This document shows, one piece after another, positions 3,451 through 33,444 of a stretch of DNA of 64,000 nt. The first letter of the stretch is position 1. Each line of letters begins with the position of its first letter. The stretch lies in assembly GCA_051294905.1 (NCBI GenBank), contig CM119372.1, positions 26,662,001 to 26,726,000 of the forward strand. The letters are read 5' to 3'. The notes under the pieces were generated by a model. That model was not told the DNA's origin. It was given only the letters and a program-made list of their open reading frames with translations, and did not search any database. Source of the DNA: Botryllus schlosseri (taxonomy: Eukaryota). A program made the translations under genes and the position numbers.

Positions 3451-4509
3451 AGTTTTGTACCTCCAAGAAGCTCTTCAAATAAACAGATGAGTCCGGAGTT
3501 CACAGGAAATGAACATGGACAGTTTAGCATGGGTATTTAGCATCCAATTAGGTCAGTACGACTATGCCCTGGAATGCGGCCGTAGTCTGCATGAGTAATC
3601 GAAACGCGACCATGAACATAAAGGTTGGCACCCCAGTAATATACAAAGCGAATGTTACCGCGAATCGGCCAATGTATGTTGATGGTAGCGCGAACAAACA
3701 TGAGCTTATCTCAGTTATGCATTCATTTGTACGATCTCTCCATCAGTGTGAACCCAGGCATTGCTTATTTTTGTTTCGATTCAGTTAGTTTCAACTCAAC
3801 GTTAATAAGCCTCTATAGTTAGCGTTTCAAGGCTTGTGCAAGTCTATATAGCACAGCCAGCATTGGTTGACAGTCAGCATTGACTGATCAAGGTTCTATG
3901 ATACTAAAATAATGGAATAGGTCGACAGTGCTGACAAGAACAGAGGAAATTTGGATTGTTGTTTAATTTATATTCAGTCAAGTATTTCGGAAAGCGATAC
4001 TGATCCATGTCGGACAGTAAATTGTAGAATATCATTAGAAATTACTTCAGAAGACATGACGATGCTAGAGGAAGACTTATACGGAGGGTTGCATTTAAAA
4101 CAAAAATTAATTTAAAACAAACATGTTTAAGGCATGGCCCTTGTTCGAAACATGTTTTTTTTAGCTATGCCGGCACGAATCTTCAATTGTGATACAATAG
4201 TGAATGACATTGACAATTGAAAATATATAAGCAGGGTTGCCATCGACATGGACCCAAAAATAAGGACATTCGAATAAGATTAGATTAGCATTAAAAAAGC
4301 GTATTTTGTACATACACTGTAAAAATTATTGTTGTAAAGTACCCTGTAACGAGCTTGCTTTGGCGTGATACAAAGATTCAGGAGCTTGCAAATGCCAAAT
4401 GCAAGCACATAACAATAAGCTATATAGGTTGTTGTATGCCTGTAAGTTGCTTATATTTTGTGCAATGAGAATGAACATTGAACAACTCAGCAGACTGAAC
4501 CTACTCAGG

Positions 4510-7850: not shown

Positions 7851-9710
7851 TCCTACTGTATATTCCATACATATTCGACCAATATATCTATCTGAGGCAA
7901 TCCTGTCGTTGCATTCGCGTTGAAGTTGTCAGATCAAGGACTTAACGCAGGAACGTGCGTCTTACTACCCACGAGCTAAGTATATCCACCCAGCCACACA
8001 TTACGTGGGACTCGGGTTAGAACTCTAGCAGGTATCAGACGACACATCCTTCTGCATTGGTAACTATTTTTAATTGTTATTACTTTGATCACAACTCGTT
8101 ATTGCCTGTTGTACAAAATAAAGACACCGTCGCGGTTGAACGGTTCGGTAAAAGTCCTCCAAAATGTTGCTTGTCGATTCTTGCGTTTCGGCTTCACTGG
8201 GCAGTGGCCAGTGGGCAGCAGAAGCTTTGCCGTCAGCTGCAGACGACTGTGATTCTATTAGAATTTTAGGCGTAAATCCGTGTTCGGGTGAATCATGGAA
8301 ACATACTCGGGTGTCATTACGTTTTATGCTTTGGAAATTACATCGACTTACTCAGAAACGTCTTGCCAGACTATTTCTTTACAATATATTCAACGTTAAA
8401 TGCATATACACGACAGTTATGGGGTGTAATTCTAGGTTTTATGACGAGAGAACAATTTAACGAAGACGAGTAGATACGTACTACGCAAGACTTTGACTGA
8501 AAATTCTGCAGATAACTCGTTAGAAATGTGTCGATGATAACGCTGAACAGACCATGTCTATCGACGATCATTGGGAAGAAGTATATTTCGGAGAGTGCGG
8601 GAATGGTTTGACCCCCGCGGCTGCAACGAATACTCGTCATTTTCCCGAATATACGATAACGACGAATAGTAGAACACATTTTTAAAAGAATTCGGCTTCG
8701 GACTGAACAGTATACACTGTACGTACATCTCACTAGCATCTCATTGAAATTGGACATTTTCGAAATTTCGTAACCGGATTCACACGTATGGCCCCCGTTT
8801 GACCCTTGGGACGTCGGCTAGAAGGATAATTTGGGTCTCGATGGAATCGGTGAAACTAGTAGAATTCATTTCAAAAAGAATTTGGCGTCGGACTCTACAT
8901 GTATCTCATTAGAATCGAATTGAAATTGGACATTTTCGAAACTTCGATGCCGTATTCACAAGAATAGCCCCCGTTTGACCCTTGGGACGACGGCTAGAAG
9001 GATGATTTTGGTCTCGATAGAATCGGCGAGACTAGTGCAACCCATTCCAAAAATAAATTAGGCTTTGGACTCTACATATACCTCATTAGAATCGAATTGA
9101 AATTAGACATTCTTGAAATTTCGATGCCCCGGACAGAACTATTACCCCGATTTGACCCTTGGGACGTCGACTTAAAGGATAATTTTACCAGAAATTGGTG
9201 CTTCTTCTGTTTGAAAGGAACTCACCCCAAGTTGAGAAAAGTTTCGGAATTCTAAAAAACGCTTCTGCAACTTTTGGGCTTGAACGTTTGCATTGTTCGG
9301 TTGTTGATAAAAATGACGTATAATCTTAAACGACGAAGTTTTTTTTCGAACATTGCGAAGAAAGATAAAGACCAGGTGGCACCCTGACCTTTTCTGTCCA
9401 AAGCAAAACTATAATCAGGGTTGCCATCGACATGGGCTTAAAAATACGGACAGTCGAAAGATTAGCATTACAACGCGTTTTTGGACGTACAAACACGTTT
9501 TTGGACGTACATTGTATTTATAAGAGCCGTGCCATATCACATTCCATACTTTTGGCCAGAAACATTCTGCTCCAGCAACCCCCCTGTTATTAGAAGGTGC
9601 TTCATAGATCTCACGACAGTTCAGGTCTATAGGTTTATCTTTGCTTGTAGCTGGGATTTGACTGTATGATTTCACCAAGTCCTTCCCTTTCCTTGGTTAG
9701 CTACCAATCT

Positions 9711-10400
9711 TTAATAAGATTGTTTATATGTCAGTGTGAGGTTCTCAAATCCCGTCTCTGCTGCGTTATGCAAAATATGAGCAGGGCGGCCGACTGGGAT
9801 CAGATGAAATGTTTGCTTTTTGAGGCGAGATAAGACGTTGGTTTTTCCACTGTGCTGTGATCCTTCAAAATTCACTGGTGCATTATTGGCATAAAAGGAT
9901 GGCAGATACCTCATGTCTAGGCCATTCTCTTGAATAGAGGAGAGAATAAAATTCATGATCCGTGCGGAGGTCTCGCAGGTCATCGATCGCAGGTCAAGAA
10001 GACGCACGCGCACTCCAACTTTGGCGTTGAATAATCTGATAACAAGAGAAAATAGCTTCACCTTGTGATTAGAGGCGTCAGCCGAGATGGAAAAAGGCTG
10101 TAGGCTACACCAAGTTCAGACAAAATCATTTTTGAGCGCATGGAGCAAGAACTCTAGTAACAATGCTTGTATTTGGTCCTGGCCGAAGCAAAGTTCTTTG
10201 CGATGTTGGAATCGGAGAATATTGCTTCGAACAATTGCGATGTGCAATCGTTGGTGAGGAATGATTGCTGAAAGTGCTGGTGTTTGACAGTATGGAATGA
10301 CCAGGTGCTCTCAGCAGTCGCTGTCTTATAGTTTGTGCTGGTCGTTGGTGCTGATCGACTTGTGAAAAATATTCAACGATCATGGCTTCTTGTGTTTTTT
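9711..10400 (-). pseudogene. hAT-superfamily transposase fragment
   Basis: IFSDSNIAKNFASARTK, frameshift, SIVTRVLAP...FSISADASNHKVKLFSLVIRLF...NNAPVNF...GRPAHILHNAA: first catalytic-Asp region and the CxxH-equivalent motif; frameshifted. Confidence 0.75.
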
Positions 10401-10519
10401 GGTAATAATGTTACTTCAAATAGAGGTCTTTTCTATGGCCTCCAGGTTAATGTCAAAATTGCAGATATTGATATGTGAACAGCTTCTTGGAGGTAGGCCT
10501 AGAGAACTTCAATATACAT

Positions 10520-11210
10520 TTGAATAGTATATTCATATTGAAATGAACCCGAATATTTTCGGCTGACACTTGTCAGTGGTAATCGTCAGCAAATAGTAGA
10601 GAATATGCCCTATTTCCACCCGCTTTGAAAAGCAATTGATTTCAGCGGTCAATACATGAAGACCAACGTGATTTTTACGACAACGCAACTGCTCCCTGCA
10701 ACTCGTAAAGACGTGCTTGCTGCACTTCAACAGATCAATGTAGTTTACGAATTTAAGTGTCACTGTGATTGTGGCTACGTGGGAAAAAGGTCAAAGCGCT
10801 TGCACGAACGCATAAATCAGCATTCATTAGAACACGCTCGGTGAAAAGCTCATCCTTAACTCATCCGCTCAAGATTGATGAGGAACAATCAAAGGCCATA
10901 AATTCTGCAATTAGCAAACACTTGTTGCATAATCCCACCTGTGCGAAAAATTATCGAGACGACAGATTTCGCATACAAAGGAAAGGGTCGTTCACTCTTT
11001 CATTTGTGTGCCTTGGGGTCGAATTTTATCAAAATACACCAGCCAAGGCTGTTCTAACGAAAAGAATTCGTGTATCATCTAAAATATGTTGATATACGAT
11101 GTTCTTTTAAATTCTCTACTAGGTGTTGACGATTACCCCTAACGCTGACGCCCTGATTACCCCAGCCGAAAATATTCGGGTTCATTTCATTATGAATACT
11201 ATTCAATATT
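10520..11210 (+). mobile_element. Penelope-like retroelement fragment: GIY-YIG endonuclease relic with an inverted partial pseudo-LTR
   Basis: NVVYEFKCHCDCGYVGKRSKRLHERINQH...SAISKHLLHNPTCAKNY (GIY-YIG pattern). 10520-10600 is an inverted copy of the 3' terminal region 11110-11210. Confidence 0.8.
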
Positions 11211-11789
11211 GATATGTGTGGAACACTCGCCCTTCAAACTTTGTTCATACCTTTGAATTCTCTTTGATAAACGTCACGAAAAACGTTTTTATGCTTTCTC
11301 ATTTTAATCAGATGTAGCCTTATTAGTAGCCAAAACTAAATATATGTGCGTGCAATATCGTTTTAATAAATTTATCAATGATTTATAGCTTTACTACATT
11401 TTACAGCAGAAACCTGGTACTGCTGTTCAATGCTAAAATGACGTCCGCTCCGATAGCTTGGTGCAGCCGAAACCGCTATACCACTCACTACCCTAGCTAT
11501 CCCACCTCTTAGAATTCGAATCCTGTGGTGTGTACGTTCGCCACGAGTGTTCCTTTCATTTATTATGTCATAGAATGTCAATGCAAAAGCATATTTTTAG
11601 AATATTATACCGCACAGATACCAGAGGAAAACGATCGAAATTATGTAGTTGCTGAAAATAAGACAAAATAAGGACGCAAGTCGAAATTAAGGACATTTCT
11701 TATAAATAAGGACAGTTGGGTTTTCTAAGACCTGGCCCTTCAAAATAAGGACAAATCTTAGAAATAATGACGGTATGGCAACCCTGACT

Positions 11790-12085
11790 ATAATTGACAA
11801 TTTGAAAACTTCTGAAATTTTTGAGGAAAGATCAAATCCCGCCTATACAAAAAATGAATATTATTCTCCGGATTTCTCCGTCAAAATGTTGCATGTTATC
11901 ATGTCTCGGATCGGTGCCACACCAGGCATTCTACTCGAGCATTTGATTGGGCATGCTGCAACGGTATATTCCAAACTAGGCGCTGCACGAAAAATATAGC
12001 GCTGCCAAGAAAAACACTTACCTAGTTATACAACCGGCCCCAAGCCGTGATTGAGGAGCATTTTCAACAACTGAAGCACGTGTAC
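11790..12085 (+). pseudogene. Possible C-terminal relic of the foldback element's transposase (NOF-like)
   Basis: KNEYYSPDFSVKMLHVIMSRIG...QAVIEEHFQQLKH recalls the N-YY-P-F...E-xF-xxK pattern of NOF/MULE-type proteins. Recognised from memory only. Confidence 0.3.
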
Positions 12086-13030
12086 TTGGTTGGCAGTCGT
12101 GTAAGTGATCTCGATCATTTTGTGTACAGATAAAAGTTAGAAATCACAAAATCGTGCAAGATTTTTTTCGGTGTGTTACTGCACTCGGGATACAGGAGTG
12201 GAAAAACAGCATTAGCTTATCATTTGTCTTGGAATTCGATGACTCGGTCATTTTACATCGGAGTTCAAAGGGTGCAAAATCGGCGGCGAAAAACGTGGAA
12301 CATCAGCCGAAGTTGTCAGGCGACTTGCGAAAGAAAACGTCTCATCGAGACATGAATACCGGAATTTACACGTCGAGAAAATCTGGCGTTAATATGGTTT
12401 CCCTTGCTGTCATAACGCTGGACGTCAACGATGTCGAAACTACTCTCTGTGCAGAGACAGCAGGAGGTGACACGGAAAAACCCGTGAAATTCTCTGGTAT
12501 TATGCTTTGTAAATTTAAAATAATCGAAATTCATAGGACACGTACGGGCAGAGGTGGCCAAGAAGTAGAAGTAGAATGTGCTCTCTGTAAAAACTACTCA
12601 AGTAAGTAGGTGTTCAGCAAAACCTGGGAAGTGACATATACAGACGAGGCAGAGCTGGGTTTGTGTTGCTATACGTCCCATGCAGGAGATATATATTTTC
12701 AACAGGATAACGATTCGACCGCATTATCTCAACCACGCAAGCACTATATGGATTGTTATGCCGAGACTTTCGTAGATGTATGGTATAGTGATCTCTCCAT
12801 ATATATTTCGCGCGAAGCATGACGAAAATCTTCGTCTCTCCGCGAAAACTGGTTCTCAATTTCTCCATTTTGGTCTCTCTCTTCCTCTTATTAGAAGTAC
12901 ATAACACTTCTACTTGACAAACTGTATATAGCGTTTTATTACACTTCTTTATACAGACATTAAAACGCTGTGGTCGTCAGAGGCTTGCGACAGGGTGGAA
13001 GTGGTTGTTAGTAGGAATTTGTTAACATCA

Positions 13031-13806
13031 AAGAATCTGCGCTTGTTGTCTGGCAGTGAATGGCTAGAGGATAAGGTATATGCTGCATCAGTATAACTAG
13101 TTTTATCATTCATAGAATCTTTTCTTTCCAGATTATGAATGCGGCATTGCTGGCGCTGTGGATAAAGGTAACATTGTTATTGTTTGCCAATTGTGTTTAA
13201 TTATTATGCAATAATAATGCTGCTCAATCCGTGTTAGAGCAGGAAACCCCATAACTTCATTCCCTTCCAGCTTTCGACACTACGGTGGTACCAGGGTATT
13301 TACCACGTAAAGTCACTCACCAAAACGGTACGGCATCATCACATTCCTCGTAGCATTATTTGGAATAAGTCGTAATGCGCGGTGTGTGTAGATGCAAAAG
13401 CCATGCACTGGAAAAATCAATCGTAACATCTATATTCATCTACGAAATCATTGGCTTTTTCTGGTTATGCGGTTTCTTGAGATAATTTTGTGGCGTGCTG
13501 TTTACCAGTCATAGAACCCCCGTTTGCGTTTTTGTTAAGGCCAACGACATAGAATCAAAGCTTTTTTATGTTTACGATTCCCTTGGCAATGAATAAGCTT
13601 ACGCAAAAACTTTGTTGCAACACTGGCAGTGAGATGATTGAGAAGGTGAAATTAAATAAGTAATTTTATTGCTTGGTTCATCGAAGATTAGAGGGTACTG
13701 GAGTCATCACAAGCCCGAGCCCGAGAGTTTCGTGGGTTGGGCCGCAATATGCTTTCCACACGATGCCCGAACCGACAATTTTAACAGTGGCGTCCTGGTG
13801 CTGAAG
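13031..13806 (+). pseudogene. Intron-containing Ulp1-like (SUMO protease, peptidase C48) domain relic inside the foldback element
   Basis: KNLRLLSGSEWLEDK | 56-bp GT-AG intron | IMNAALLALWIK ... DIESKLFYVYDSLG ... PHDARTDNFNSGVLVLK then gt. Ulp1 motifs in the expected order; the catalytic Cys position is AGT (Ser, 13786); stop codons present. Confidence 0.6.
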
Positions 13807-16265
13807 GTATAAATTTTGAAGGTTACATCAATTCAATTCAAACTCAGAGCGACCGATTCATCATTTGACATTGTCTGCGATGATGCTTCTTTCAGTTAAG
13901 AGAACAGTCATCTCTGATCGAAAACCAAGAGCATATGGCGCTTCGACCAAATCTATTTTTTAAACTACTTACTTGAGTTTTTTTCTCTCACGTTCTTGGA
14001 AATCGATACCTATACCTTTAATTAAGTAGAAATTTAGGATATTACATGTACTTCTACTGGAGTAGCAACGATGACTATACGTTAGCCACCTCTGATTACT
14101 TGCATGAAAACATTTGGTTGGTGTTCTTAGTTCGCGAAAAAGTTCTTGTTGGGTGAGGCCACCGATTTTCCGGCAAGCACTGAAGATTGCAAACGCTATC
14201 ACGAGACCATTGCAAACATGTTGCTCGAACTGACTGATTTAAATGTTAGCAGTTATTTAGTGGTCAAATATCATAACACTTATTTTACATATAGATGAGA
14301 AAGTTGTACTCGAAAGTCTAAATGGGTAAGGAGAATGCTGATTCTCGAATCTGTGAAAAGCCTAATGCTCCAAGCCGGATAGCGCAATGTTGATTGAGTT
14401 CCATTCTCACTGTCTTATAGGTTACGTTATAAATAGACGACAGAGATAGAAATCTATACATTTTTTTAAATATCACATCAATAAATGTTTCAATTATTTC
14501 AGGAACAATCTTGAAAGACCGCGTCTGCTAATCGCATCGATCTCGGAGGATGATGATATGACCACGGCAGAAGGCAAAAATCCAGGAGAAAGCGTCGCAA
14601 AAGGCCGGAAATTTCATCAACGGTTATCTACGAGAGAGTTCCGATTTTCACGACATTTGAAGCACCGATCCTGGAAATTATATCTGGGGAACAAAGGAAA
14701 TTTTTGAGCGTGTTAATAGCATTCGTGTAAGCTCGCTAGCCAAATCATATTTCTGAAACAAAAATTCAAAGTCCATTGATATTTTCGACTTGTAATTTTG
14801 ATTGAAATAATATTCAAACTATCCAAGGTATAAAAAATACTCAACCAAAAAGACGCTGAAGAACTACTAGGATGTTACTCAACGATGATAATTGATTGAT
14901 GAATAGAAGAGCTAGAATTTTGAATGTGCCTTCCCGTACTTGTTATCATCATCTGGTATATTCTTGCATTTCGAAAAAAAAGATCAAATCGGAGTTGCTA
15001 TAGAGTGTTGTTTTATTGGTCCGTCCGTATCATTGGTGAAAGCATAGTCAATTCTTTTAATCTTAGCAGATGTGCACTATATATGTATATATATATAATC
15101 GATAAGAAGACAGAGCAGGGCCATAACTTACACAATCCGAAACCAGGGGTATAACGAGGGCGCTGTGTGTGCTTGGGTACCGAAATTTCGAAAATGTCCA
15201 ATTTCAATTCGATTCTAATGAGAAATATGTAGAGTCCTAAGCCTAATTCTTTCTGAAATGAATTCTACTAGTCTCGCCAATTCTATCGAGGCAAAAACTA
15301 TCCTTATAGCCGACGTCCCAGGGGTCAAACGGGGGTCATCGTTCTGTCCGGGGTACCGAAATTTCAAAAATGTCCAATTTCAATTATATTTTAATGAGAT
15401 ATATGTTGCGTCCGAAGCCTGATTATTTTTGAAATGCGTTGCACTAGTTCCGCCGATTCTATCGAGATCAAAATTATTCTACTAGCCGACGTCCCAAGGG
15501 TCAAACGGGGGCCATACTTGTTAATCCAATACCGAAATTTCGAAAATGTCCAATTCCAATGCGATACTAGTGAGATGTACGTACAGTCCCAAGCCTAATT
15601 CTTTCTGAAATGAATTCTACTAGTCACGCCAATTCTATCGAGGCCAAAATTATCCTTATAGCCGAAGTCCCAGGGGTCAAACGGGGGTCATAGCTCTGTC
15701 TGGGGTACCAAAAGTTCAAAAATGTCCAATTTCGATTCTATTTTAATGAGATATATGTTGCGTCCGAAGCCTAATTATTTTTGAAATGCATTGCACTAGT
15801 CTCGCCGATTTTATCGAGATCAAAATTATCCTTCTAGCCGACGTCCCAAGGGTCAAACGGGCGCTATACTTGTGAATCCGGTATTGAAATTTCGAAAATG
15901 TCCAATTTCAATTCGATTCTAATGTAATATATGTAAAGTTTGAAGCCAAATTCTTTTTGAAATGGTTTGCAATAGTCTCGCTGATTTTATCGAGACCAAA
16001 ATTGTCCTGCTAGCCAACGTCCCAAGGGTCAAACGAGGGCTATACTTGTAAATCCGGTATCGAAATTTCGAAAATGTCCAATTCCAATTCGTTTCCAATG
16101 AGATATATGTAGAGTCCGAAGCCTAATTCTTTTTGAAATGAATTCTACTAGTCTCGCCGATTCTATCGAGACCAAAACTATCCTTCTAGCCGTCGTCCCA
16201 AGGGTCAAACGGGGGCGATACTTGTCAATCCGGTATCGAAATTTCGAAAATGTCCAATTGTCCAT

Positions 16266-19200
16266 CAGACATGGGGTAATCGTGATTAGTAATCGTAATC
16301 GATTACGACGATTACATCATTTTCAAGTAATCGTAATCGCAATCGATTACATTCGAAAAAAATCCGAAGTAATCGTAATCGTAATCGATTATTTCACATA
16401 TCTAATCGATTTCTTGGTGAAAGAACGATTGCTTTTTGACTGAAACTGTACAGTGAACAAGGAAGAGTGCGAACTTATACCATTTTATTTGTAGCAGGTC
16501 GGCTTTTCAAGCGCCGTTGCTAATTATCACGTCACAAGCAGTAGCTTTGCTCTTCGATCACTACGCAACGAATTATCCACACATAGTAAATAGATATTCA
16601 ATGAAGGCTATATGTAGTCGTGTGATTGTAAGAATCTTCGGCATGCCGTATATCAGGTTAACAATATACTCCATACATATCCACCTAACAGCATAATAAT
16701 AACCACTACTCTGCCTAGTTTCAAATGTAACGTTTCTATTGATGTTTGATTATGCAGTTTTACCGTAGTTTTTAGCGAGTAGTAGGCCTATGACCGCGTT
16801 CACTGGATAAAGGTTTGAAATTTTGTACTCCTCAAATATTACGATTCCCACATCAAATCGTTACAAATCACCGACTGCTGATATAAATCATAACCCAGCA
16901 GGTATTTGCTGTTGCGAGTAAAGGCAGTTCGCTATACAGGTGGTAAATTGATTGTAGGCAATATGCATGCGTAAATGCGTATGTTCATCATTAAACTGCG
17001 AGAAATGTTATGCAATATTGCAGATTTTATGTTCACTTTATCTTATTCTCATATGCCCCTGCTTGAAACAGGCACCAATCGGTATTTCGCAATTCTTTAC
17101 TCAACATTTGAACCTGACGCCATAGCCCTTCGCTTATACACCATGTTAGCGTGCGTTGTAGCTGAATCTGGACCGAAACAGCAGACCCCGTAGGGCTGGG
17201 GGCAATTCCCCCTGTACCAACCTTTTACGATCGACCTTGTCGCAACAACTAAAAGACACGTTTGAGACAATATGGACTCGGTGTGTAATCAATAATTATA
17301 ACATCTTAGGACGGGCCCGTTGATATTATTACTTTGTTGCATGTTGTTAATCGGCAATCTCGCGCCTGCTTTATAGTCAAAAGATATTGCAGTCGTCCAA
17401 ACGTAGCAGACTAAACTAACGAAAAACATATTTCGTGAGACGCATACACAGATTGTCTTTTCTTCACGGGATGTATCATTTTCCTCTATGGGTACACCGG
17501 GTTGCCTTGTCCTGTGGGGCTAGTGCAGTGGTTCTCAACCGGTGTGCCGCGGCACACTAGTGTGCCAATTGGACTGTTCAGGTGTGCCGCGAGCAAATGT
17601 GGTAAGCTATGTCGAAGTATAACAAAATTCCAAATTTTGAGTGTGTCATTGTTCGTTTTTCTATTGAATTTAACCGATCACGACAAGCGATGCACAATCC
17701 GATGCAGTGAAATGATATATAAGGATGTCGAGGCGACCGTATCTCAATCTAGTATCACAATCTGACATCCCTATTAGGTCATGGATTGGGTCTTTCTCTG
17801 GGCTTTGTATTGTAAAGACGCTCTGAGCACAGCAACGTATAGGGGCGGAGAATCTAATAAATCTGCGATTCTTCGTAACTTGCTACTGTGTACTGCCATG
17901 AATCAAACTGGGGCCTCCACCGTCAATGGGTGTGATACGCTAGTTTGCCCACGCATAGTAGCATTTAGGACGGTGATAATTGAACTCGGGCAAATGGACC
18001 ATGATATTTACGTGTGGCCGAAGTGTTCACCTTTTACTTGTCACCCCCATCAGAACCGGATGCAGAACAGGGACATGACGCAGGTTGATGACCTTTTTCT
18101 GTTCCTATTTGTAGTCGTATTCTTGCCATGTCTTTATCATCGATAATCATTTTACACCATGCCGATATTACTTATTTTGATTCCTGAGATGCCAACTTAT
18201 AGCACGGCCCCCACTTTTTGTAGGACACTGCTTTTGAAGATCGGAGGACGAGTAGGAGCCTACATAAACCTCCAACACCTAGGAAGGCATTCTCACCATC
18301 GGGAAATGAACTCATTTGGAAGTGATGTTCACGTTTACAAATTAGAATTACCAACATAGCCATTCAGATTGCGATTGTTAAGTAGCGTGCCTGCACTGGA
18401 GGTAAAATGTAGGCTCAGGGCGCAACGTTATATTGCAGGCGACAAATTCGAAAATTGAGAATAAAGTTAATCAAATTATATCAGTTACAAATTTCTCCGC
18501 CGCTGAGGTTTATTATTCCGGTTTGTTGGAACTACGATTCAACTGTGGGTGGCTGCCAGCAACACTATTGAGGTATACTATCCTCACAGGTGCTAATACA
18601 CGGTCTGCGTGGAAATGCGATTGACATCCATGTATACACTTCTACGCCTCTGTATCTGTTTGTGGCGATCGTGATTGGACTCTTCGATGCGACGGTTAAT
18701 TACATCGACAATGCGGTAGTGGGCAAACTTTATATTGCCAAGCCAATCTCATGATATTAAGCTCAGCCGGAAGTTTAAACGAGATCTCACCAGGCCAGTT
18801 ATGTGGTAACAAAGGTAATAGCGGAGAACTCAAAACCTCACACGGAAGCGGAGAAAGTTCTTCTTCAGGTCTGCAATAAAGTTGTAAAGAAATCTTTGGG
18901 AAGAATTGTAAACGATTCCCATGTCTAATGATACCATTCGCAGACGTATTTGTGAGATGTCCGCTGAGATAAAAGAAAACCCAAGCAGAGAAAAGCCTAG
19001 TTGAGTGCTCCGAAAAGGTATAAGTAGCCTACTTCGTCAGTGACCATCGCTGTAAGACTATGGTTGCTGCTACACGTATTCTGGTAGTTTGCCTGTGCCG
19101 TTAGTCAAAAGAGTCCGGAACCACTGTGCTAGTGTGCCGCGAACTATTTTTCATGTTCAAAGTGTGCCACGAGGTCAAAAAGGTTGAGAACCACTGGGCT

Positions 19201-19838
19201 AGTGTTACGATAGGACTATTCGTCGCACCCGTTCAGCGTCGCTATGGACAATGGACAGTGGGCACTGGACACATATACTTAGACCATAGCAATTTACAAC
19301 GTAGCTACGTTGTAAATTGCTATGCTTAGACGGACGTTTCGGCCAAGATCTTTCTTTGGTAGCACATGTTAGCCATATGTCTGCATATGTCTTGGTGTGT
19401 CGTGGCGCGGTAGCGGTCGGCACCAAAATGTCGAATTCTATCAATTATGCGTAATATTTTATTGATGGGGAGGGGTATGCATATTAAAATCAAGATATCT
19501 AGCGACATGAATTCGCGAAGCGGGAGGAAAAATTTTCAAGTATATGGTATATAGTGACGTAACAAGCGAATGATGTCACATTTAAGAACAAAATTGTTCT
19601 CTCACGAGGTCTTTTCATCGCAAGTTATATTGTGTTCCAATATGTCTTCAAAAATAGGTTATAAGAAGCAAAAATAAATGTAATCGTGGGTAATCGTGAT
19701 TACTTTTCAAATGTAATCGTAATCGTAATCGACTACTTCCAGATTTTGCTGTAATCGTAATCGTAATCGTAATCGCGTGATTCCGAAGTAATCGTAATCG
19801 CAATCGATTACATTCATAAAGTAATCACCCCATGTCTG
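16266..19838. mobile_element. hAT-type non-autonomous element (CAGACATGGGG family, gtaatc subterminal repeats)
   Basis: TIR CAGACATGGGGT; TSD ttgtccat/atgtccat (7/8). Confidence 0.85.
17526..19196. mobile_element. hAT/Charlie-type non-autonomous element nested in 16266-19838
   Basis: TIR CAGTGGTTCTCAACC; perfect TSD GGCTAGTG. Confidence 0.9.
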
Positions 19839-20589
19839 ATGTCCATAGTCCAATTCCAATTCGATTCTAATGAGAAATATGTAGAGTCCGAAGTCAAATT
19901 CTTTCTGAAATGAATTCTACTAGTCTCGCTAATTCTATCGAGGCCAAAATTATCCTTATGGCTGACGTCCCAGGGGTCAAACGGGGGTCATAGTTCTGTC
20001 CGGGGTACCGAAATTTCAAATATGTCCAATTTCAATTCTATTTCAATGAGATATATGTTGCGTCCGAAGCCTAATTATTTTTGAAATGCGTTGCACTAGT
20101 CTCGTCGATTCTATCGAGATCAAAATTATTCTTCTAGCCGACGTCCCAAGGGTCAAATGGGGGCTATACTTGTGAATCCGGTGTTCAAATTTTGAAAATG
20201 TCCAATTCCAATTCGATTCTAATGAGAAATATGTAGAGTCCGAAGCCTAATTCGTTCTGAAATGAATTCTACTAGTCTTGCCAATTCTATCAGGGCCAAA
20301 ATTATCCTTATAGGCGACGTCCTAGGGGTCAAACGGGGGTCATAGTTCTGTCCGGAGTACCGAAATTTCAAAAATGTATAATTTCAATTCTATTTTAATG
20401 AGATATATGTTGCGTCCGAAGCCTAATTATTTTTAAAATGCTTGCACTAGTCTCGCCGATTCTATCGAGATCAAAATTATTCTTCTAGCCGACGTCCCAA
20501 GGGTCAAACGGGGGCTATACTTGTGAATCCGGTATTGAAATTTTGAAAATGTCCCATTCCAATGCGATACTAGTGAGATGTACGTACAG

Positions 20590-21207
20590 TAGGGCTGTTC
20601 AAAAATAACTTTTTTTTCCGGATTCCAGCCATTCAGTGATTAAATTGTCAGGTTACCTTAAAAAACGCTGCACACCAAATTTGGTTCAACTCTAACAAGT
20701 ATAGGGCTCCGCGGATCCAATTAAAATTTTAAATTTATACAGGAAAATTGAAAAAAAAAAATTTTTCAAATTTTTCTGTCAACCCCATGAAATTGTTGAG
20801 CTGTCTTCAGAGACGATGCTAAAAAATTTGACTCAATTCGGACTAGTAGAAGTGGAGTTATTGGAGTTTTTCGTTGATAATTCTCCAATTATCCTTGATT
20901 GGTGGATAATCCGAGAATTATCAACGAAAAACTCAAATAACTCCGTTTCTACAGGTTGGAATTGACTCAAATTTCATTTGCATGGTCTTTGAAGACATCT
21001 CAACATTTTCATGGGGTTGAGAGAAAAATTTGAATTTTTTTTTTTTTAATTTTACGTAGTAAATTAAAAATTTTAATTGGCTCTGCGGACGCTTAGACAT
21101 GTTCGAATTGAACCAAATTTGGTGTGCAGCCTTTGTTGTGGTAACCTGACAATTTAATCAGTGAATGGCTGGAATCCGGAAAAAAAAGTTATTTTTGAAC
21201 AGCCCTA
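20590..21207. mobile_element. Fully palindromic 618-bp MITE (TAGGGCT family)
   Basis: Ends TAGGGCTGTTCAAAAATAAC; arms complementary up to a centre near 20900; perfect TSD ACGTACAG. Confidence 0.9.
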
Positions 21208-22851
21208 ACGTACAGTCCGAAGCCTAATTCTTTCTGAAATGAATTCTACTAGTCACGCCGATTCTATCGAGGCCGAAATTATCTTTATAGCCGTCGTCCC
21301 AGGGGTCAAACGGGGGTCATAGTTCTGTCCGGGGTACCGAAATTTTAAAAACGTCCAATTTCAATTATATTTTAATGAGATATATGTTGCGTCCGAAGCC
21401 TAATTATTTTTGAACTGCGCTGCACTAGTCTCGCCGATTTTATCGAGATCAAAATTATTCTTCTAGCCGACGTCCCAAGGGTCAAACGGGGGGCTATACT
21501 CGTGAATCCGGTATTGAAATTTTGAAAATGTCAAATTTCAATTCGATTCTAATGAAATATATGTAAAGTTCGAAGCCTAATTCTTTTTGAATTGGTTTGC
21601 AATAGTCTCGCCGATTTTATCGAGACCAAAATTGTCCTGCTAGCTGACGTCTCAAGGGTCAAACGAGGGCCATACTTGTGAATCCGGTATCGAAATTTCG
21701 AAAATGTCCAATTCCAATTCGCTTCCAATGAGATATATGTAGAATTCGAAGCCTAATTCTTTTTGAAATGAATTCTACTAGTCTCGCTAATTCTATCGAG
21801 GCCAAAATTATCCTTATAGCCGACGTCCCAGGGGTCAAACGGGGGTCATAGTTCTGTCCGGGGTACCGAAATTTCAAAAATGTCCAATTTCAATTCTATT
21901 TTAATGAGATATATGTTGCGTCTGAAGCCTAATTATTTTTGAAATGCGTTGCACTAGTCTCGCCGATTCTATCGAGACCAAAACTATCCTTCTAGCCGAC
22001 GTCCCAAGGGTCAAACGGGGGCTATACTTGTCAATCCGGTATCGAAATTACGAAAATGTTCAATTCCAATTCGATTCTAATGAGAAATATGTAAAGTCCG
22101 AAGCCTAATTCTTTCTGAAATGAATTCTACTAGTCTCGCCAATTCTATCGAGGCCAAAATTATGCTTCTAGCCGACGTCCCAAGGGTCAAACGGGGGCTA
22201 TACTTGTGAATCCGGTATTGAAATTTTGAAAATGTCCAATTTCATTTCGATTCTAATGAGATATATGTAAAGTTCGAAGCCTAATTCTTTTTGAAATGGG
22301 TTGCAATAGTCTCGCTGATTTTATCAAGACCAAAATTGTCCTGCAAGCCGATATCTCAAGGGTCACACGGGGGCTATACTTGTCAATCTGGTATCGAAAT
22401 TTCGAAAATGTCCATTGTCCAATTCCAATTCGATTCTAATGAGAAATATGTAGAGTTCGAAGCCAAATTCTTTCTGAAATTAATTCTACTAGTCTCGCCA
22501 ATTCTATCGAGGCCAAAATTATTATTATGGCCGACGTCCCAGGAGTCAAACGGGGGTCATAGTTCTGTCCAGGGTACCGAAATTTTAGAAATGTCCAATT
22601 TCAATTATATTTTAATGAGATATATGTTGCGTCCGAAGCCTAATTATTTTTGAAATGCGCTGCACTAGTCTCGTCGATTCTATCGAAATCAAAATTATTC
22701 TTCTAGCCAACGTCCCAAGGGTCAAACGGGGGCTATACTTGTGAATCCGGTATTGAAATTTTGGAAATGTCCAATTTCAATTCGATTCTAATGAAATATA
22801 TGTAAAGTTCGAAGCCTAATTCTTTTTGAAATGGGTTGCAATAGTCTCGCT

Positions 22852-24571
22852 CAGTGATTCCCAAGCGCGGCCCCCAGATTGCCTTCTTGCGGTCCCCAAA
22901 AATATATAGAGAAATCGATTTATGACAAAAAATAAAATTTATATTTTTAAAATACTCTTGCTTGGCTTGGTCTCTGTAGTTTTGAATTATAGAATTGCAG
23001 GAAAGTTGTGAGTATAGACTGCGAACGTTACGTCACTGCTGTTTCAATGCAATGTGCCCTAACGTTCCAGTTGATCCAGCAGTAACTATAGATGTAAATA
23101 GGTATTGATAACTTTCAAAACCGGAGGAAAATCCTGAAAAATGGTAAAATTTTCCCACTTCGTGGTCGCTTGACTAAAAAATAAATAGAGGCTCAACTCC
23201 CGGAAAATACAGTTTTTCTTTCACATTAACAGGTGGTTGACTGAAAAAAAGGTCAACTTTCCGGTCCAGCTACCGAAATAGCCACCGCAGCGTTCCTACA
23301 GTGCTGACTTAATGTATATCAGTCGAATTTGGCCCTATATGTTACCAAAATCCTCGAAAAAGAAAACAAAATCTCCAAAAAGAAGACATTTGGGCGTCCT
23401 CCGAGGACACTCAAAAAAGATGACAAATCATCTTAAAAGAGGACGTATGGTAACCCTATGATAACTAGATGTGCATTGAATACCCCGAGATGCAAACATA
23501 TAAAGTTTTAGCCCATGTAACATGTGACTCCAAGAAATGTGTCACAACGATTGGCAGCGAGAAAGGCCTGGCCATAAAGGACTGCTTTTATGCTGACCAA
23601 AAACTTCGAAATATCAAAAACTTCGTTATATATACAAAATACATATTGGTTTAATTGTCCATATAGGCGCCTAAATGACTGGCTCCGAATGTTCTTGTCT
23701 TGGCAATCTGAACCTCACAAGACAAATACCATACCGCAGGAAAGAAAATTATATGCCAGTGAAGAAATACCAATCTGAAATCGTGTGATCTTTCAGTTTA
23801 GTATAGGTTTGGGCAATTCAACATTTTTGATATAGCAGACAGGAGGTCACGAAATAACATCGTGTACAGATAAGTCCGCCCGCCTGAAGATGTTTAATTT
23901 TACCGGGTCTGCAGTTTCAAAGGCACCTCTCACTCAGCTCTACCGGTAATTCTGATTACGTGGGCAAAGAGGACCACCATGCAATTCTCGATCTCATTCA
24001 CCGATTTTATCATGAGTTATCGAAATATTCGCGCATCGCGGTCTCACTAAACAGTACAACTTTAATTTCGTGGCAAAAGCGAACAACGTGATGCGGGGTC
24101 AGTTTATCACCCTATGGGAGCCCGGGGTCCTGACGTAGTGCTGTCACGTTTCTGCCAACGGGTATACCCCCGGAGATGTTTAATTACTATTGAGGTGGCG
24201 CATACCTTTTCAAACACACCTCACTCAGCTCTACCGTTAAATCAGAATACGTGATCAGCGACAGGATGAAAATTGATAGCAATACATGCAATTCCCGATC
24301 ATATTGTCCGATTCAGTCATGAAGCTAAAGAAATTTCTTGCGCTTCGCGCGTTTAGGCGAGAAAAGCTGATTCACTCAACGGACACTCATGCAGCAGATA
24401 AGTAGCGGTAAACAGTGTACAGTTTTGAAATCCCGCCAGGGCAATAAAACTATTCCGAAATAGCCATGATGACTGTTTGGGTCCGTTTCATAGCCGTAGT
24501 ATTCGTGCGGCCCCGACCGAACTCTGAAATTCTAAATTACGCCCTCACACCGAAAAAGTTTGGAACCACTG
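22852..24571. mobile_element. hAT/Charlie-type non-autonomous element in the satellite array
   Basis: CAGTGATTCCCAAG...TTTGGAACCACTG; TSD gtctcgct/gtctcgtt (7/8). Confidence 0.8.
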
Positions 24572-26975
24572 GTCTCGTTGATTTTATCGAGACCAAAATT
24601 GTCCTGCTAGCCGACGTCCCAAGGGTCAAACGAGGGCCATACTTGTGAATCCGCTATCGAAATTTCGAAAATGTCCAATTCCAATTCGCTTCCAATGAGA
24701 TATATGTAGCGTCCGAAGCCTAATTATTTTTGAAATGAATTCTACTAGTCTCGCTGATTCTATCGAGACCAAAATTATCCTTCTAGTCGACGTCTCAAGG
24801 GTCAAACGGTGGCCATACTTGTTAATCCGATACCGAAATTTCGAAAATGTCCAATTCCAATTTGATACTAGTGAGATGTACGTTCAGTCCGAAGCCTAAT
24901 TCTTTCAAAAAATGCGTTCTACTATTCGTCGTTATCATATATTCGGGAAAATGACGATTCTTCGTTGCAGCCGCGGGGGTCACACCATTCCCACAATCTC
25001 CGAAATATACTTCTTCCCAATTATCGTCGATAAACATGGTCTATTCAGCGTTATCATCGACACATTTCTGACGAGTTATCTGCAAAATTTTCATTCAAAC
25101 TGTCTAGTGGGTACATATTCGTTTTCGTGAGATTGTTCTCTCGTAAAGAAATAGTCTGGGAAGACGTTTTTGAGTAAGTCGATGCAATTTTCAAAGCATA
25201 AATCGTCATGTCACCCGAGTATATTTCCATGATTCAACTGAACACCGATTTACGCTAAGAATTCTAAAATAATCACAGTGATAGCTGTAGTGTTTGTTGC
25301 AGCTTCAGTCGAGATCATTTTCTGGTCAAATCTTATTGAGGGCTGCTATGTATCGCGTCATTTGAAGTTAGGAAGTATTATCTTATTGGTAGTGTTTGCA
25401 CCGCGGCGATCGCTATATATTCTTGTGCAGTCGTGCTCAATTGACGGCTGCAGCCAGAGATTGGTATGTAATGATGTGTGATATGTAATTTGGTGACTTT
25501 GCAGATTATATAATTAGTCCTGCTTGCTAACGGCTGCATTGGACGTATTCCATGAAGTAAGCAATGGCAGCATTGATTACTGTTACTGAGATGTTGTTTG
25601 GGATGGTTGATTCCAATGACGGCTAGTTAAAATTGAATTTCAAGAAGATTCAGGTAAATTTCGGCCTCACAGCTGTAGTTGATTAATTACATAGCATATT
25701 CGTGTTACAGATGATTCAAAAGTAACAGATTTGTCTGGTATATGGTCTGTGCAAATCCTATTGCTGTACCAGCAATGTGTATCTATTAATGACACAAAAG
25801 TGGTTAGTAATCTACAACCGGATACTTGATGGTGTAGAATTCAGCACAATTTTGTCTTGCAAGTGATATTTCAAAGTGCAGGAGATGTACCCTGTGGTCT
25901 GCAAAAGTCAGAACAACGCAACAATGTGTCATCAATCATGACTGATCTTGTAGCTTCTACTACGTAGGAAAATATACTGTTGTAGTCGAGTAAGTAATTT
26001 TGTAGGATATATATTTGATCAAGGTTTCACAAGATTTTAGCAGTCAATCGGTTCTGACTACTTTCGAAATTGCAAGATACATCTTCACGACTAATGGAAA
26101 ATAACCGATAATGACGCTACAAAGGTAAAATCTTTGAAAATTGATTCAGCGGTTACTGTGATGGTTATTTCATGCGGTTCTTATGACATTTTCACTCGTA
26201 AATGGACGCAAAACTACCTCAACTTATTTGAAAGGTAAGAAGTATTTCATTACTCACCATCCATCAGTGTCATTGGGTACTACACTGTTAAAATTATTCT
26301 TCTAAAATAGCTTGTAACGAGCTTGTAAAGGCTAGATACAAGCTCTAGGGAGCTTGTAAATGCAAAATGCAAGCACATAACAAGCTGTCATGGAACGGTG
26401 CTTGTAAATTGTGCTTGTAAATTGTTTATATTTTATGCAAGAAGAATGAACAAACGCAGCAGCAGTCCGAACTCACTCAAGACTCTCGACAGACACGATG
26501 CCACCCCAGACACGATAACGCACCCCAGACATGCCCAGACACGATGTCCGAGTGTCAACACAGTCCGCATACATCCCCTGACATGCCCCAGACATGTCCC
26601 AGATTTGATGTGCGTTCGACAACGCAGTTCGAACCCACTCCAGACATCCTCAGACATGATGTCCGAATGTCAACGCAGTTCAAACGCACCCCAGACATGT
26701 CCCAGACATCATGTTCGTCATCGACATCATGTCAACACAGTTCGAACACACCTCTCTGAAATGATGTTCGATTGGCAACGCAGTCCGAACTAATCTCCAG
26801 ACATGACTCACTGAGGCATTGCCTCAGACATGATGTCTGAGTGTCAATACAGACCGAACGAACCCCATTCATGCCCTAGATAAGTCCCAGGCATGATGCT
26901 CAAGTGTCATAACGCAGTCCGAACACATCCCTAACATGATGTTCGATAGATAACGCAGTCCGAACTTACTACAGT

Positions 26976-29341
26976 CAGCACCGTAACTGCCGCACCCCAA
27001 ACCCCCCAATTGGGGGGGCCCGAGGTCAAAGAGGGCCCAAAATTATTTAGTGAATTAGCATAAATTATAGAGTATTTTTTTGAAAATTTAGGCAACTTTC
27101 TTAAAAAATTTTCGCGCTTCGCGCGATTTCAAGCTACCAAATATCTTGATTTTGGAGTACTCTTCCCCGAAACGCAAGATTTATACAAATGGGCATATCG
27201 GCGTTGGCCATTACCGCTCCACGATCATCAAGACACATAAAGTTTTAGGCCACCTAACATGCGACTCCAAGAAGTGTGCCAGAACGATCGGCAGCGAGAA
27301 AACCTTCGCCGACAAGGACTGACCTTATGCTGACCGAAAACTTGGTTATATATACAAAATAGTGTATTTTACAATCTGAACGACAAATACCATCCCAAAA
27401 GGAAAGATTATATGCCAGTGAAGAAATACCAATTTGAAATCGTGTGCGTCTTTTAGTTTGGTAGCCTACACTCAAACTGGAGGTCACGAAATAACATCTT
27501 GTTACGGAGTAGTACCAACGGGCCCTACAGTTTCCAAGACACCTCCCTCAGCTCTATCTGTAAATCTCATTACGTGCGCAGAGAGGACACGAAATTGATA
27601 ACAATATATATGCAATTCCCGATATTATTCACCGATTTTATCATGAATTATCGAAAATTTTCGCGCTTCGCCCTGGCTCACCAGACAGTAGGCCTACAAC
27701 TAACTTCATGGCAAAAGCTAACAAGGTGATAGGGGGTAGGTTTATCACCCTATGGGAGCCCAACACCCAAGTTGGTTTTGGGAGCACCTGAGGAAGTGCT
27801 GTTTCGTTCCTGGCAACGGGTATCGCCCGAAGATATTTAAATATTATTGAGGGGTCCTACCTTTTCAAACACATCTCCCTCAGCTCTATCAGTAAACCTG
27901 ATTACGTGAGCAGAGAGGATAAAAATTGATAGCAATATATACGCAATTTCCGATCATATTGACGGACTCAATCATGAATTATAGAAAATTTTCGCGCTTC
28001 GCGCGGTTTAGGTGAGGAAAGCTGACAATCTAAACCAGTGGTTCCCAACCTTTTTCGACTCATCGCCCCCTTTTGAAGCTCCACACCGATCATCGCCCCC
28101 CAAATATTGGGAACCGAAAAACAGCACTACGTGACGCCCCCCCCCCGAAAACGTTGTTCCTTGGCCCCATATGGTGATAAACCAATCCCCAGTCACCCTC
28201 AGCCAGCGGGCTTTTTGTCGCTACATATCAGCTATACCCTATTTCCTGTACTGTTTGGTGAGTCACCGTATTCCACCTAAACGCGCGAAGCGCGACAAAT
28301 TTATATAATTCATGTTTGAATCGGTCATTATGGTCGATGTGGTATGTTGGAAAAGGTAGAACCTCTAAATAATAATTAAACATCTTCGGGCGGAATCGTT
28401 GTTATATTGACTTCTTTACATGATGTTATTTCGTGACCTCCTATATCTGCTATGTCAGACGATATGGAAATTTGTCAAAACGTACCAAACTAAAAGACGC
28501 ACATGATTTCATATTGGTATTTCTTTACTGGCAAATAATTTTTGTCCTTGCGGGATGGCATTTGTCCTGTAGGGTTAAGGTCGCCAGGACAGGAACATTC
28601 GACGCCAGCCATTGAGGCGCCTATGGACAATTAAACATATATGTATATATATCAAAGTTTTCGGTCAGCGCGAGGGCATTTCTTTTCGGCCAATTTCTTC
28701 TCGCTGCTGATCGTTCTGGCACACTTCTCGGAGTCGCATGTTACATGGCCTATAACTTCATATGTCTTGGTGCTTCGTGGCGCAGTAATGGCCGACGCCG
28801 AGGTCTCTAATTTCCATAAATCATGCGTATTTTTGTTGGGTGACGGGGACCCCAACAACAAGATACATGAAAAGATTAGATTTTGGAAAAAGTCGCATGA
28901 ATTTCTAAAAAATGACTCAATCATTCATGTTAATTCACGAAATAATTTTGGGCTTCCTTCGATTTCGCCCCCCCCCCCACCCCCAATTGGGGGTTTAGGG
29001 TGCGGTAGTTACGGTCCCGACTCCAATATAGCCGTTTTAACGCGCCATCGCCCCCCTATCGCCCCCTTCGTTGTTTTCGCCCCCTATCGCCCCCTTCGTT
29101 GTTTTCGCCCCCTATCGCCCCCTTCGTCCGTTTTCGCCCCCTATCGCCCCCTTCGTTATTTTCGCCCCCCTAGACCGCCAAATCGCCCACGTTGGGAACC
29201 ACTGCTCTAAACGGAGGCCAATGTAGATGATAAGTATCGGCAAACAGCGAATAGCGAGAGGGGGGTTCGATTTATCATCATATGGGGGGCCCAAGACCAA
29301 CATTTTGGGGGGGTGCCTGACGAAGTGCTGTTACGGCCCTG
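26976..29341. mobile_element. hAT-type non-autonomous element (CAGGGCCGTAAC family)
   Basis: cagcaccgtaac...gttacggccctg; perfect TSD ACTACAGT; interrupts the subterminal tandem repeat. Confidence 0.85.
28036..29204. mobile_element. hAT/Charlie-type element nested in 26976-29341, with a ~28-bp C-rich minisatellite (29050-29170)
   Basis: TIR CAGTGGTTCCCAAC; TSD atctaaac/ctctaaac (7/8). Confidence 0.85.
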
Positions 29342-33108: not shown

Positions 33109-33444
33109 GTCTAGACTCTAGAGGACAAGATCAAAGAAAATAAATTCTCCAAGCATGCAAGAAGAATCAAGTGGGATCACTTGCCAGCCATCATTGTAGA
33201 TGTGATAGGTACAATGCTTTGAATATACAAATTATTGGACAACTCAAAATATGAATTTGTGTTTTTTTTCATATTCCACAGAACTTAATTGGATGCTCGG
33301 TATACCTTCAATGTTCAACGAATCCTATGACAAATTCTTGGTCATAAACAAGGTTTGTACCAAGTACATATCGACATTGTATTACTATAAAATTTTCTTT
33401 ACTGCGCTGATAATAGGCTCATAGCTAGATATGCCAGTATAAGT

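Follow-up and report, generated by a model that had tools for sequence, protein, structure and literature searches.

A decayed foldback element of 17,034 bp, which encloses the relic of an intron-containing Ulp1/C48 cysteine protease, was found at positions 8246-25279 of a 64,000-bp stretch of Botryllus schlosseri DNA (assembly GCA_051294905.1, contig CM119372.1, positions 26,662,001 to 26,726,000; hereafter, the window). It is probably a cut-and-paste transposon of Mutator-related (Rehavkus/NOF-like) type, present here as an old and dead copy that has lost the front of its transposase.

Structure of the element

The arms lie in mirror orientation around a loop of 5,956 bp (9187-15142). BLAST comparison of the left end with the reverse-complemented right end revealed 86-88% identity between the arms (8246-9186 and 15143-25279), made up of an outermost block extending inward from 8246/25279 (121/137 identical; 88%) and a second block (511/595; 86%) that continues into a tandem array. 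The unit of the array (176-177 bp) was detected by TRF at 8793-9186, 15176-16259, 19848-20578, 21210-22850 and 24568-24905, its orientation in the left arm being inverted relative to that in the right. Arrays included, the arms are 0.9 and 4.2 kb long. These are the long modular inverted termini (TIRs) with internal tandem repeats that mark foldback elements, as an earlier note on this DNA had proposed, and the subterminal arrays within them are a mark of the Rehavkus/MULE type. The outer features are as follows:

8234..8242, + strand: candidate left 9-bp target-site duplication (TSD), partner 25282-25290; weak, 7/9 match
8246..8715, + strand: left TIR, non-repetitive outer domain (88% and 86% blocks against the reverse complement of 24911-25279)
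8716..9186, - strand: left TIR tandem array, approx. 2.7 units of 176 bp, stopping mid-unit and adjoining coding-like sequence
15143..24910, + strand: right TIR tandem array, 176-bp unit in approx. 21.6 copies, showing a higher-order pattern and interrupted by insertions B, D and E
24911..25279, - strand: right TIR, non-repetitive outer domain (BLAST)

With regard to the length of the TSD, which the earlier note had proposed to define, the element's own locus offers only this weak 9-bp candidate. Both of its mismatches are C/T and it requires termini that differ by one base; a 7/9 match is expected by chance in 5.6-9.4% of cases (5.6% among 5,000 random position pairs with the same +/-3 freedom of offset). 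The duplication may alternatively be read as 8 bp, with a 7/8 match.

Seventeen kilobases was rejected as the native size, since 8,329 of the 17,034 bp (49%) consist of five nested insertions:

9416..11786, no strand assigned: insertion A, 2,371 bp, 12-bp TIRs, hAT-type 8-bp duplication, TSD 8/8
16260..19847, no strand assigned: insertion B, approx. 3.6 kb, 8-bp direct repeat 8/8 (outer)
17526..19196, no strand assigned: insertion C, within B, 1,671 bp, hAT-type 15-bp TIRs, TSD 8/8
20590..21207, no strand assigned: insertion D, 618-bp palindromic MITE, TSD 8/8
22852..24571, no strand assigned: insertion E, 1,720 bp, hAT-type TIRs, TSD 7/8

Random rates of such 8-bp matches are 5e-5 and 6e-4. 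Insertion A contains a high-copy repeat at approx. 10470-11250, and insertion B has an inner alternative (16266-19838), with a 7/8 direct repeat at symmetric TIR ends. Once the insertions are subtracted, the native element measures approx. 8.7 kb and its loop 3.6 kb. The 17-kb element and the ~6-kb loop of the earlier note, which overlooked the insertions, are therefore correct as spans but not as native sizes, 2.4 kb of the loop being insertion A.

The protease domain

The loop contains the following predicted parts of a C48 domain and, after them, a possible PHD-finger remnant:

13031..13167, + strand: N-terminal helix exons WLEDK / IMNA (intron 13076-13131, GT..AG, 56 bp)
13390..13463, + strand: exon with the catalytic His (CAT at 13449), aligned with VHVGAHWIFL of Ciona protein P0006; exon start approximate
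13540..13628, + strand: exon with the catalytic Asp (GAT at 13576), interrupted by an in-frame stop (TAA at 13594)
13692..13806, + strand: exon with the Gln site and the Cys site, placed by the alignment columns of proteins P0001-P0006
14137..14262, + strand: exon for the C-terminal helix of the protease (tblastn, Ciona P0003 residues 83-124)
14341..14417, + strand: possible PHD-finger remnant (Cys/His pattern over two frames, by eye only)

The motifs reported earlier (WLED/IMNA, YDSLG and RTDNFNSGVLVLK) are located where they had been placed. The WLEDK / IMNA exons lie outside the region matched by the Ciona relatives, and presumably correspond to the similar motif of SENP/Ulp1 proteins. The exon with the catalytic His, overlooked previously, reads IHLRNHWLFL at 13434-13463.

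The order of the His-Asp-Cys triad and the oxyanion Gln is kept and His and Asp are present, but the Gln site has become Arg (CGA, 13768) and the Cys site Ser (AGT, 13786). The earlier verdict of a dead copy, drawn from the Cys-to-Ser codon and stops, is upheld and extended by the loss of Gln and by a frameshift just 5' of the His. As judged from these substitutions, the domain in this copy is a relic and no enzyme.

Direct comparison of unspliced frames of the window with Pfam PF02902 (C48) gave no match in any of 12 frames or 19 pieces, whereas Ciona P0006 passes the Peptidase_C48 cut-off (31.4 bits against 20.7) and matches 13540-13806 with an E value of 1.6e-11; C48 membership is thus assigned by transitive homology. 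P0006 also scores 0.96 to C48 clusters in Atlas. When the three core exons (with X at the junctions) were aligned with P0006, the score was 180, compared with a mean of 27.6 and a maximum of 56 for 1,000 shuffles. A phmmer search of 1.84 billion proteins returned three matches: an unnamed Logan protein (E 4.5e-12), which has the same intron position and an intact Cys, and two Ciona proteins (E 2.4e-4). Gln and Cys are retained at the catalytic columns of P0001-P0006, and Ciona relatives with His, Gln and Cys all intact exist. P0003 residues 83-124 match 14137-14262 with 33% identity over 42 aa (E 0.001; tblastn, window). A profile of the group of relatives ranked SENP5/SENP1 structures at the top, weakly (E 0.014-0.03). 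The Ulp1/C48 identity proposed earlier is therefore confirmed indirectly, through homology with Ciona proteins. Peptidase family C48 includes NEDD8- and ubiquitin-directed members besides SUMO-specific ones.

For the PHD finger, none of eight pieces matched Pfam. The single match of a PDB search with a raw frame was taken as chance, and four weak Pfam matches (E 0.09-0.32) were dismissed as unrelated, one of them being PF00770, a clan relative, on P0006.

Two RNA runs gave zero depth over 13014-13837 and no reads on the protease exons, so the splicing described here is predicted rather than observed. A search of runs listed no RNA run as carrying sequence of the element; two marine metagenome runs in it (X7 and X8, share 0.06) do not count as evidence.

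The putative transposase

Upstream of the protease exons, the loop contains two coding-like pieces:

9187..9415, + strand: putative transposase remnant, first piece, lacking the 5' end of the gene
11787..12127, + strand: putative Mutator/Rehavkus-type transposase remnant, second piece, by resemblance of motifs only

The first piece and the sequence from 11787 onward are in one reading frame, which continues across the target duplicated by insertion A. The second piece consists of an NEYYSPDF block, a frameshift and an AVIEEHFQQLK block that includes the presumed catalytic Glu; we take these blocks to resemble those of Mutator/Rehavkus-type transposases. Approx. 190 degraded codons remain.

No Pfam match (MULE, integrase or KDZ) was obtained with 12 frames and 19 pieces, the frames being degraded, and a word-based search yielded no homolog among 27 candidates. 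Atlas likewise offered no reading for the remnant. One viral contig of 19 matched over 25 aa, opposite a phage terminase-like ORF, and was rejected as chance; a further viral-contig search gave 0/80. Among metagenome contigs, none of 124 protein-pattern stretches was confirmed and the repeat motif had no match. A fused transposase-C48 protein was not found among 7,999 and 30 candidates in word-based searches, which are weak for long proteins. The NOF-like transposase relic of the earlier note thus stands at the level of motif resemblance, while the Pfam, word and viral-contig searches were all without a relative. As the remnant matched no database relative, the designation NOF/MULE-like rests on resemblance of motifs, the architecture and the weak 9-bp duplication.

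Other copies

Diverged copies are present in DNA runs of the host (X1) and of a second organism (X6). Record 6 of X1, which may be the same sample as the window, differs over 13157-13591 at 73 of 430 letters; the X6 records cover 13222-13761 at approx. 88-90%. Two other contigs run from 9381/9382 straight to 11790, and thus represent copies without insertion A. In other contigs from the two organisms, joints of 15021 and 15078 to 15175 link the 3' end of the loop with the array. The diverged contigs and the joints without insertion A in X1 and X6 show a dispersed multi-copy family. The 176-bp unit reaches very high abundance in the DNA run. No contig of the X1 and X6 runs spans arm and loop of another copy, nor was a whole second copy seen in them.

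Origin and relationships

The 176-bp unit is so abundant that two independent satellite-transposon fragments might flank an unrelated protease pseudogene by chance, and the weak outer TSD fits this explanation, as does the fact that no second full-length copy was seen. We find it highly improbable, given that the unique outer domain occurs at both ends, in exact mirror order and with the same final base, that the loop directly adjoins both arrays, and that contigs from two organisms connect the loop with the array. It is also unlikely that a non-autonomous foldback element captured an intron-bearing piece of a host Ulp1/SENP-like gene (Pack-TIR style), with upstream frames that are no transposase. 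Introns have been kept, no search matched a transposase and the Ciona relatives are annotated as stand-alone proteins of 98-153 aa; however, these relatives are multi-locus 'uncharacterized' genes, mutually 77-87% alike and far from canonical SENPs (E ~0.02), and the same-strand upstream frame runs through the target of insertion A and carries presumably transposase-like motifs.

Ginger1 elements have 4-bp TSDs, and Zisupton/KDZ elements a KDZ-type transposase with SWIM/SAP domains. An Ulp1-carrying element of such a superfamily, with independently evolved foldback arms, seems quite unlikely to us. Ginger1 transposases, as far as described in PMC2836005, have a C-terminal Ulp1 domain (some, in one family, with a PHD finger) and introns, unrelated transposases such as that of Galileo have gained foldback arms, and the outer duplication may be read as 8 bp (7/8). 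On the other hand, the Ginger1 transposase is Gypsy-integrase-like and its TIRs are simple and short (40-270 bp in Table 1 of PMC2836005), in contrast to the 0.9- and 4.2-kb arms described here; no frame gave an integrase-like or KDZ match in Pfam, an absence that is weak in degraded frames, and satellite-filled arms are a described hallmark of Rehavkus.

Rehavkus is a Repbase group assigned to the MULE superfamily or placed next to it (members: Rehavkus-1_TC, -3_TC, -1_HR, -2_Nvi, -1_DY and 1_AP), and Repbase holds Rehavkus entries from Ciona savignyi. The accessible descriptions give a size range of 4.9-18.5 kb and a 9-bp TSD (PMC6446971, Table 1 and S1), a single ORF, a 164-bp unit, mostly in 5 and 8 copies, in Rehavkus-1_TC (PMC10218199) and up to 50 repeat copies in Rehavkus-3_TC (bioRxiv 10.1101/2024.12.02.626372). 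The Botryllus element resembles this group, by architecture and not by comparison of the DDE core, in having long inverted termini whose tandem repeats vary in number and differ between the two ends; its length falls within the described range, and it has a possible PHD remnant. It differs in that the accessible descriptions list a PHD finger and no Ulp1 domain (PMC6446971), and in that its nearest protease relatives are ascidian, the hosts named there being insects and annelids.

FB-NOF, Tm1, Tetris, Muta1 and Galileo, most of them assigned to Mutator, share TIRs of modular build, in which an outer domain is combined with tandem repeats further in (PMC4079207, PMC3169594). Their accessible descriptions mention mostly short units (12-15 bp in Tm1 and Muta1) and no Ulp1 domain in FB-NOF or the other foldback elements; NOF is likened here by description only, and FB-NOF is called non-autonomous in one of the cited papers. 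The FB-NOF/MULE-like family proposed earlier thus holds for the foldback architecture, but the closest described group is Rehavkus, not Drosophila FB-NOF.

Animal Mutator-type elements with Ulp1 have been published before, namely the MuDR-type elements of hydra and lancelet (PMC2836005). These elements and the plant Kaonashi/VANDAL elements likewise carry a C48 domain within a Mutator-type DNA transposon (PMC2836005, PMC13317346); the accessible texts describe no satellite-filled foldback arms for them, and Kaonashi are non-TIR MULEs with Ulp1 as a separate gene. A literature search, with most subscription papers and Repbase Reports outside its coverage, returned no description uniting foldback arms, Ulp1 and Mutator.

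The element adds a further decayed copy to a transposon group that has been little studied, and its value is mainly that of a pointer to Rehavkus-like foldback elements with Ulp1, in a lineage with ascidian protease relatives and beyond the insect and annelid range of PMC6446971. Why unrelated transposons repeatedly capture SUMO/ubiquitin proteases is a question standing since at least 2010 (PMC2836005). Were an intact member to come from Ciona, a tractable model, this question could be tested; with the dead Botryllus copy it cannot.

Proposed history

An autonomous Mutator-related ancestor most likely had long TIRs composed of a unique outer domain and a 176-bp satellite-like array, whose units may have been additional transposase-binding sites, and generated approx. 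9-bp target duplications. It most likely encoded one spliced protein, in which a DDE transposase was followed by the Ulp1/C48 cysteine protease and perhaps by a PHD finger. To judge from its family, the protease may have acted on the transposase, or on host proteins of repair or chromatin at the element, by taking off SUMO (or a related modifier). As a hypothesis, which we hold to be rather improbable, the transposase of a tunicate lineage of Rehavkus-like foldback elements carries a fused SUMO protease (and a PHD reader), with which the element frees the silencing complexes on its satellite-filled arms of SUMO; this would parallel, in an animal, the anti-silencing by VANC/Kaonashi in plants.

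From the present copy, deletion would have removed the bulk of the left array together with the 5' end of the transposase; the protease lost its Gln and Cys, and stops and frameshifts arose. Thereafter, five elements with 8-bp TSDs (hAT-type) inserted and doubled the length of the copy. Relatives of two of these occur elsewhere in the window: an element related to insertion D lies near 55794-56457, and parts of insertion E recur at 27233-28765 and 52526-53133.

Structure and native size of the foldback element

The feature singled out in the earlier note is real and was correctly spotted: it is a decayed, unexceptional copy of an element type that is already known. Its long, modular inverted arms (8246-9186 and 15143-25279) were confirmed by BLAST of the element ends, which aligned the sequence running inward from 8246 with the reverse complement from 25279 (121/137 positions, 88%), followed by a second mirror block (511/595, 86%) that runs on into a tandem array. 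TRF identified the same 176-177-bp unit on both sides, at 8793-9186 on the left and, in the opposite orientation, in four right-hand blocks (6.2, 4.2, 9.3 and 1.9 copies). Comparison of 22 right-hand units (two, cut by insertions, scored low and were ignored) revealed recurring types, approx. 88-94% alike within a type and approx. 71-84% between the two main types, which indicates that the right array grew as a higher-order repeat. The loop (9187-15142) spans 5,956 bp, insertion A included.

Five younger elements, each with its own inverted ends, are nested in the foldback element:

insertion A, 9416-11786, flanking 8-bp direct repeat 8/8
insertion B, 16260-19847, flanking 8-bp direct repeat 8/8
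insertion C (inside B), 17526-19196, flanking 8-bp direct repeat 8/8
insertion D, 20590-21207, flanking 8-bp direct repeat 8/8
insertion E, 22852-24571, flanking 8-bp direct repeat 7/8

Random pairs match 8/8 at a rate of 5e-5 and 7/8 at 6e-4; an 8-bp target duplication is the signature of hAT elements. Without these insertions 8,705 of the 17,034 bp remain (left arm 941, loop 3,577, right arm 4,187). The proposed 17-kb element with a 6-kb loop must therefore be reduced to a native size of 8.7 kb, half of the 17 kb being later arrivals. In the case of insertion A, later arrival is supported by two contigs of DNA run X1 that lack it; they connect 9381/9382 with 11790 and have 28-29 other letters at the joint.

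Several features of the insertions were recorded. Four separate elements have landed in the 176-bp array (15176-22850), so the array is possibly a hot spot or safe haven for insertions. Insertion A contains a repeat of very high depth (10470-11250; inverted ends 10520-10604 and 11111-11206); contigs elsewhere skip 10470-11247, and related pieces occur at 3077-3481. A frame-broken stretch of this repeat, which by eye looks like a GIY-YIG endonuclease of Penelope-like elements, had no Pfam match. Similarly, frame-broken 18740-19000 of insertion C, which by eye we take to resemble a Charlie/Buster-type hAT transposase, gave nothing relevant in Pfam. Insertion D is a palindromic MITE which, like another at 55794-56457, is 620-660 bp long with arms 86-90% complementary; the two are approx. 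68-70% alike. Insertion E carries one of several rearranged copies (23496-24412, 26973-29022, 52414-53133) of a dispersed repeat family.

The best candidate for an outer target duplication of the foldback element is 9 bp long (8234-8242 and 25282-25290), requires termini one base different and overlaps an 8-bp reading of 7/8. It matches at 7/9 positions and is suggestive only, since 5.6% (offset +/-3) to 9.4% (+/-4) of 5,000 random pairs matched equally well.

Coding remnants in the loop

The predicted Ulp1-type (Peptidase_C48) relic was upheld indirectly, by transitive homology. Pfam gave no direct C48 match in 12 whole frames or 19 pieces of the window; the profile was reached through a Ciona relative. 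A phmmer search with the frame read through 13132-13812 matched three proteins among 1.84 billion representatives: an unnamed Logan contig protein (P0001; E 4.5e-12), in which the corresponding intron is likewise read through and Gln and Cys are retained, and two uncharacterized Ciona intestinalis proteins (P0002 and P0003; E 2.4e-4). The latter fall below the Peptidase_C48 cut-off of 20.7 bits (17.1 and 20.4, respectively), and their cluster mate P0006 exceeds it (31.4 bits), scores 0.96 against C48 clusters in the Atlas and matches window 13540-13806 with E 1.6e-11. When the His, Asp and Cys exons were joined, with X at the junctions, the score against P0006 was 180 (maximum of 1,000 shuffles, 56). 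A profile of the protein group ranked SENP5 and SENP1 structures first, weakly (E 0.014-0.03).

The relic pieces are parted by predicted GT..AG introns of 56, 70 or 75, 76, 63, 89 and 82 bp; two more proposed introns were discarded for lack of fit. The WLEDK|IMNA part is covered by none of the relatives; its motif, together with a clean intron, suggests that it belongs to C48. The copy is dead, as had been claimed: the catalytic His (13449) and Asp (13576) persist, the Gln and Cys sites are Arg (13768) and Ser (13786), and the frame shifts directly 5′ of the His and meets a stop at 13594.

The Ciona relatives (P0002-P0006; LOC108950842, LOC144745135) retain His, Asp, Gln and Cys in their C48 domains, apart from the truncated P0003, which alone lacks the His. 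They are likely transposon-borne and offer a ready source of intact enzyme.

Upstream of the relic, a single frame leads from 9183 up to the target that insertion A duplicated and resumes in phase at 11787, so that coding-like sequence starts directly where the left array breaks off on its inner side. This frame carries a NEYYSPDF block, followed beyond a frameshift by AVIEEHFQQLK. We take the two to resemble the surroundings of the last catalytic Glu in Mutator/NOF-like transposases; none of the searches run confirmed this identity. If it is correct, deletion would have removed the gene start and the first two catalytic Asp, along with most of the left array. Searches that are weak for long proteins gave none in which this C48 type is fused to anything else.

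Other copies and expression

Parts of 11790-15170 are contained in eight runs, five of which, all from organism A, hold at least half of the sequence words. Four of the 24 listed runs were compared with window 9100-15250 at 80% likeness. Some X1 records are identical to the window (X1 may be the source sample) and others diverged (record 6, 13157-13591: 73 other letters in 430). Protease-exon records of X6 (labelled organism B) are approx. 88-90% like the window, and one at 14750-15007 differs at six of 260 positions. Among the 15 of 285 joints listed, those from 15021 to 15175 (X1, X6) and from 15078 to 15175 (X1) tie the 3′ end of the loop to the array, and the one from 11893 to 12796 represents an internal deletion form. 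None of the contigs of the compared runs held arm and loop together. Summed contig depth, which is no copy number, was 45-134 over the protease exons, approx. 22 for identical records and approx. 29,000 in the array bin; these depths fit few gene-bearing and many array-bearing copies.

RNA runs X11 (approx. 6% read) and X15 (approx. 13% read) had zero depth on 13014-13837 and, among the rows shown, no splice joints there; splicing of the relic was thus unobserved, for those samples only. Their reads fell mostly on the repeats inside insertion A (10470-11250), on both strands.

Comparison with known elements and possible mechanism

Mutator takes in most foldback elements, with exceptions (PMC3169594, PMC4079207, PMC5225508). 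Rehavkus, grouped with or beside MULE (PMC13359780, PMC4438587, PMC6431247, bioRxiv 10.1101/2021.09.26.461848), is 4.9-18.5 kb long, makes 9-bp TSDs and includes a PHD finger and, ahead of the 3′ TIR, a minisatellite; it is known from insects and annelids and described only in Repbase (PMC6446971). Tribolium Rehavkus has long inverted termini and variable tandem repeats (164-bp unit in Rehavkus-1_TC). Ulp1 is carried by Ginger1 and by the Mutator elements of some hosts, namely hydra, lancelet and plants (PMC2836005); its function is stated as unknown in an account of Kaonashi/VANC (PMC13317346). The accessible parts of the literature searched, Repbase lying outside the search, contained no statement combining Rehavkus with Ulp1. 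The element works like the Rehavkus/MULE foldback type and is a candidate, not a proven, member: its outer 7/9 duplication is suggestive only, and its putative DDE remnant had no match in the searches run.

Most likely the autonomous ancestor had a spliced gene for a DDE transposase that ended in a C48 protease, and its arrays probably provided additional sites for the transposase to bind, an argument made for foldback elements in bioRxiv 10.1101/2024.12.02.626372. The protease could have targeted SUMOylated transposase, repair factors, as proposed in PMC2836005, or SUMO-dependent silencing complexes, SUMO taking part in piRNA silencing (bioRxiv 10.1101/533091, PMC10363806). The present data favour none of these three options; that a transposon-borne deSUMOylase acts as an anti-silencing factor we consider improbable.

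Other repeats in the window

A second tandem array (60658-61972; 150-bp unit, 8.6 copies, higher-order period of approx. 457 bp) is unrelated to the 176-bp unit. The block 31000-36700 is partly duplicated (31658-32053 and 35454-35856; 32507-32984 and 33505-33986). Its protein-like open frames (31032-31436 and 32032-32349) have no Pfam match, and the block is possibly another decayed transposon gene.
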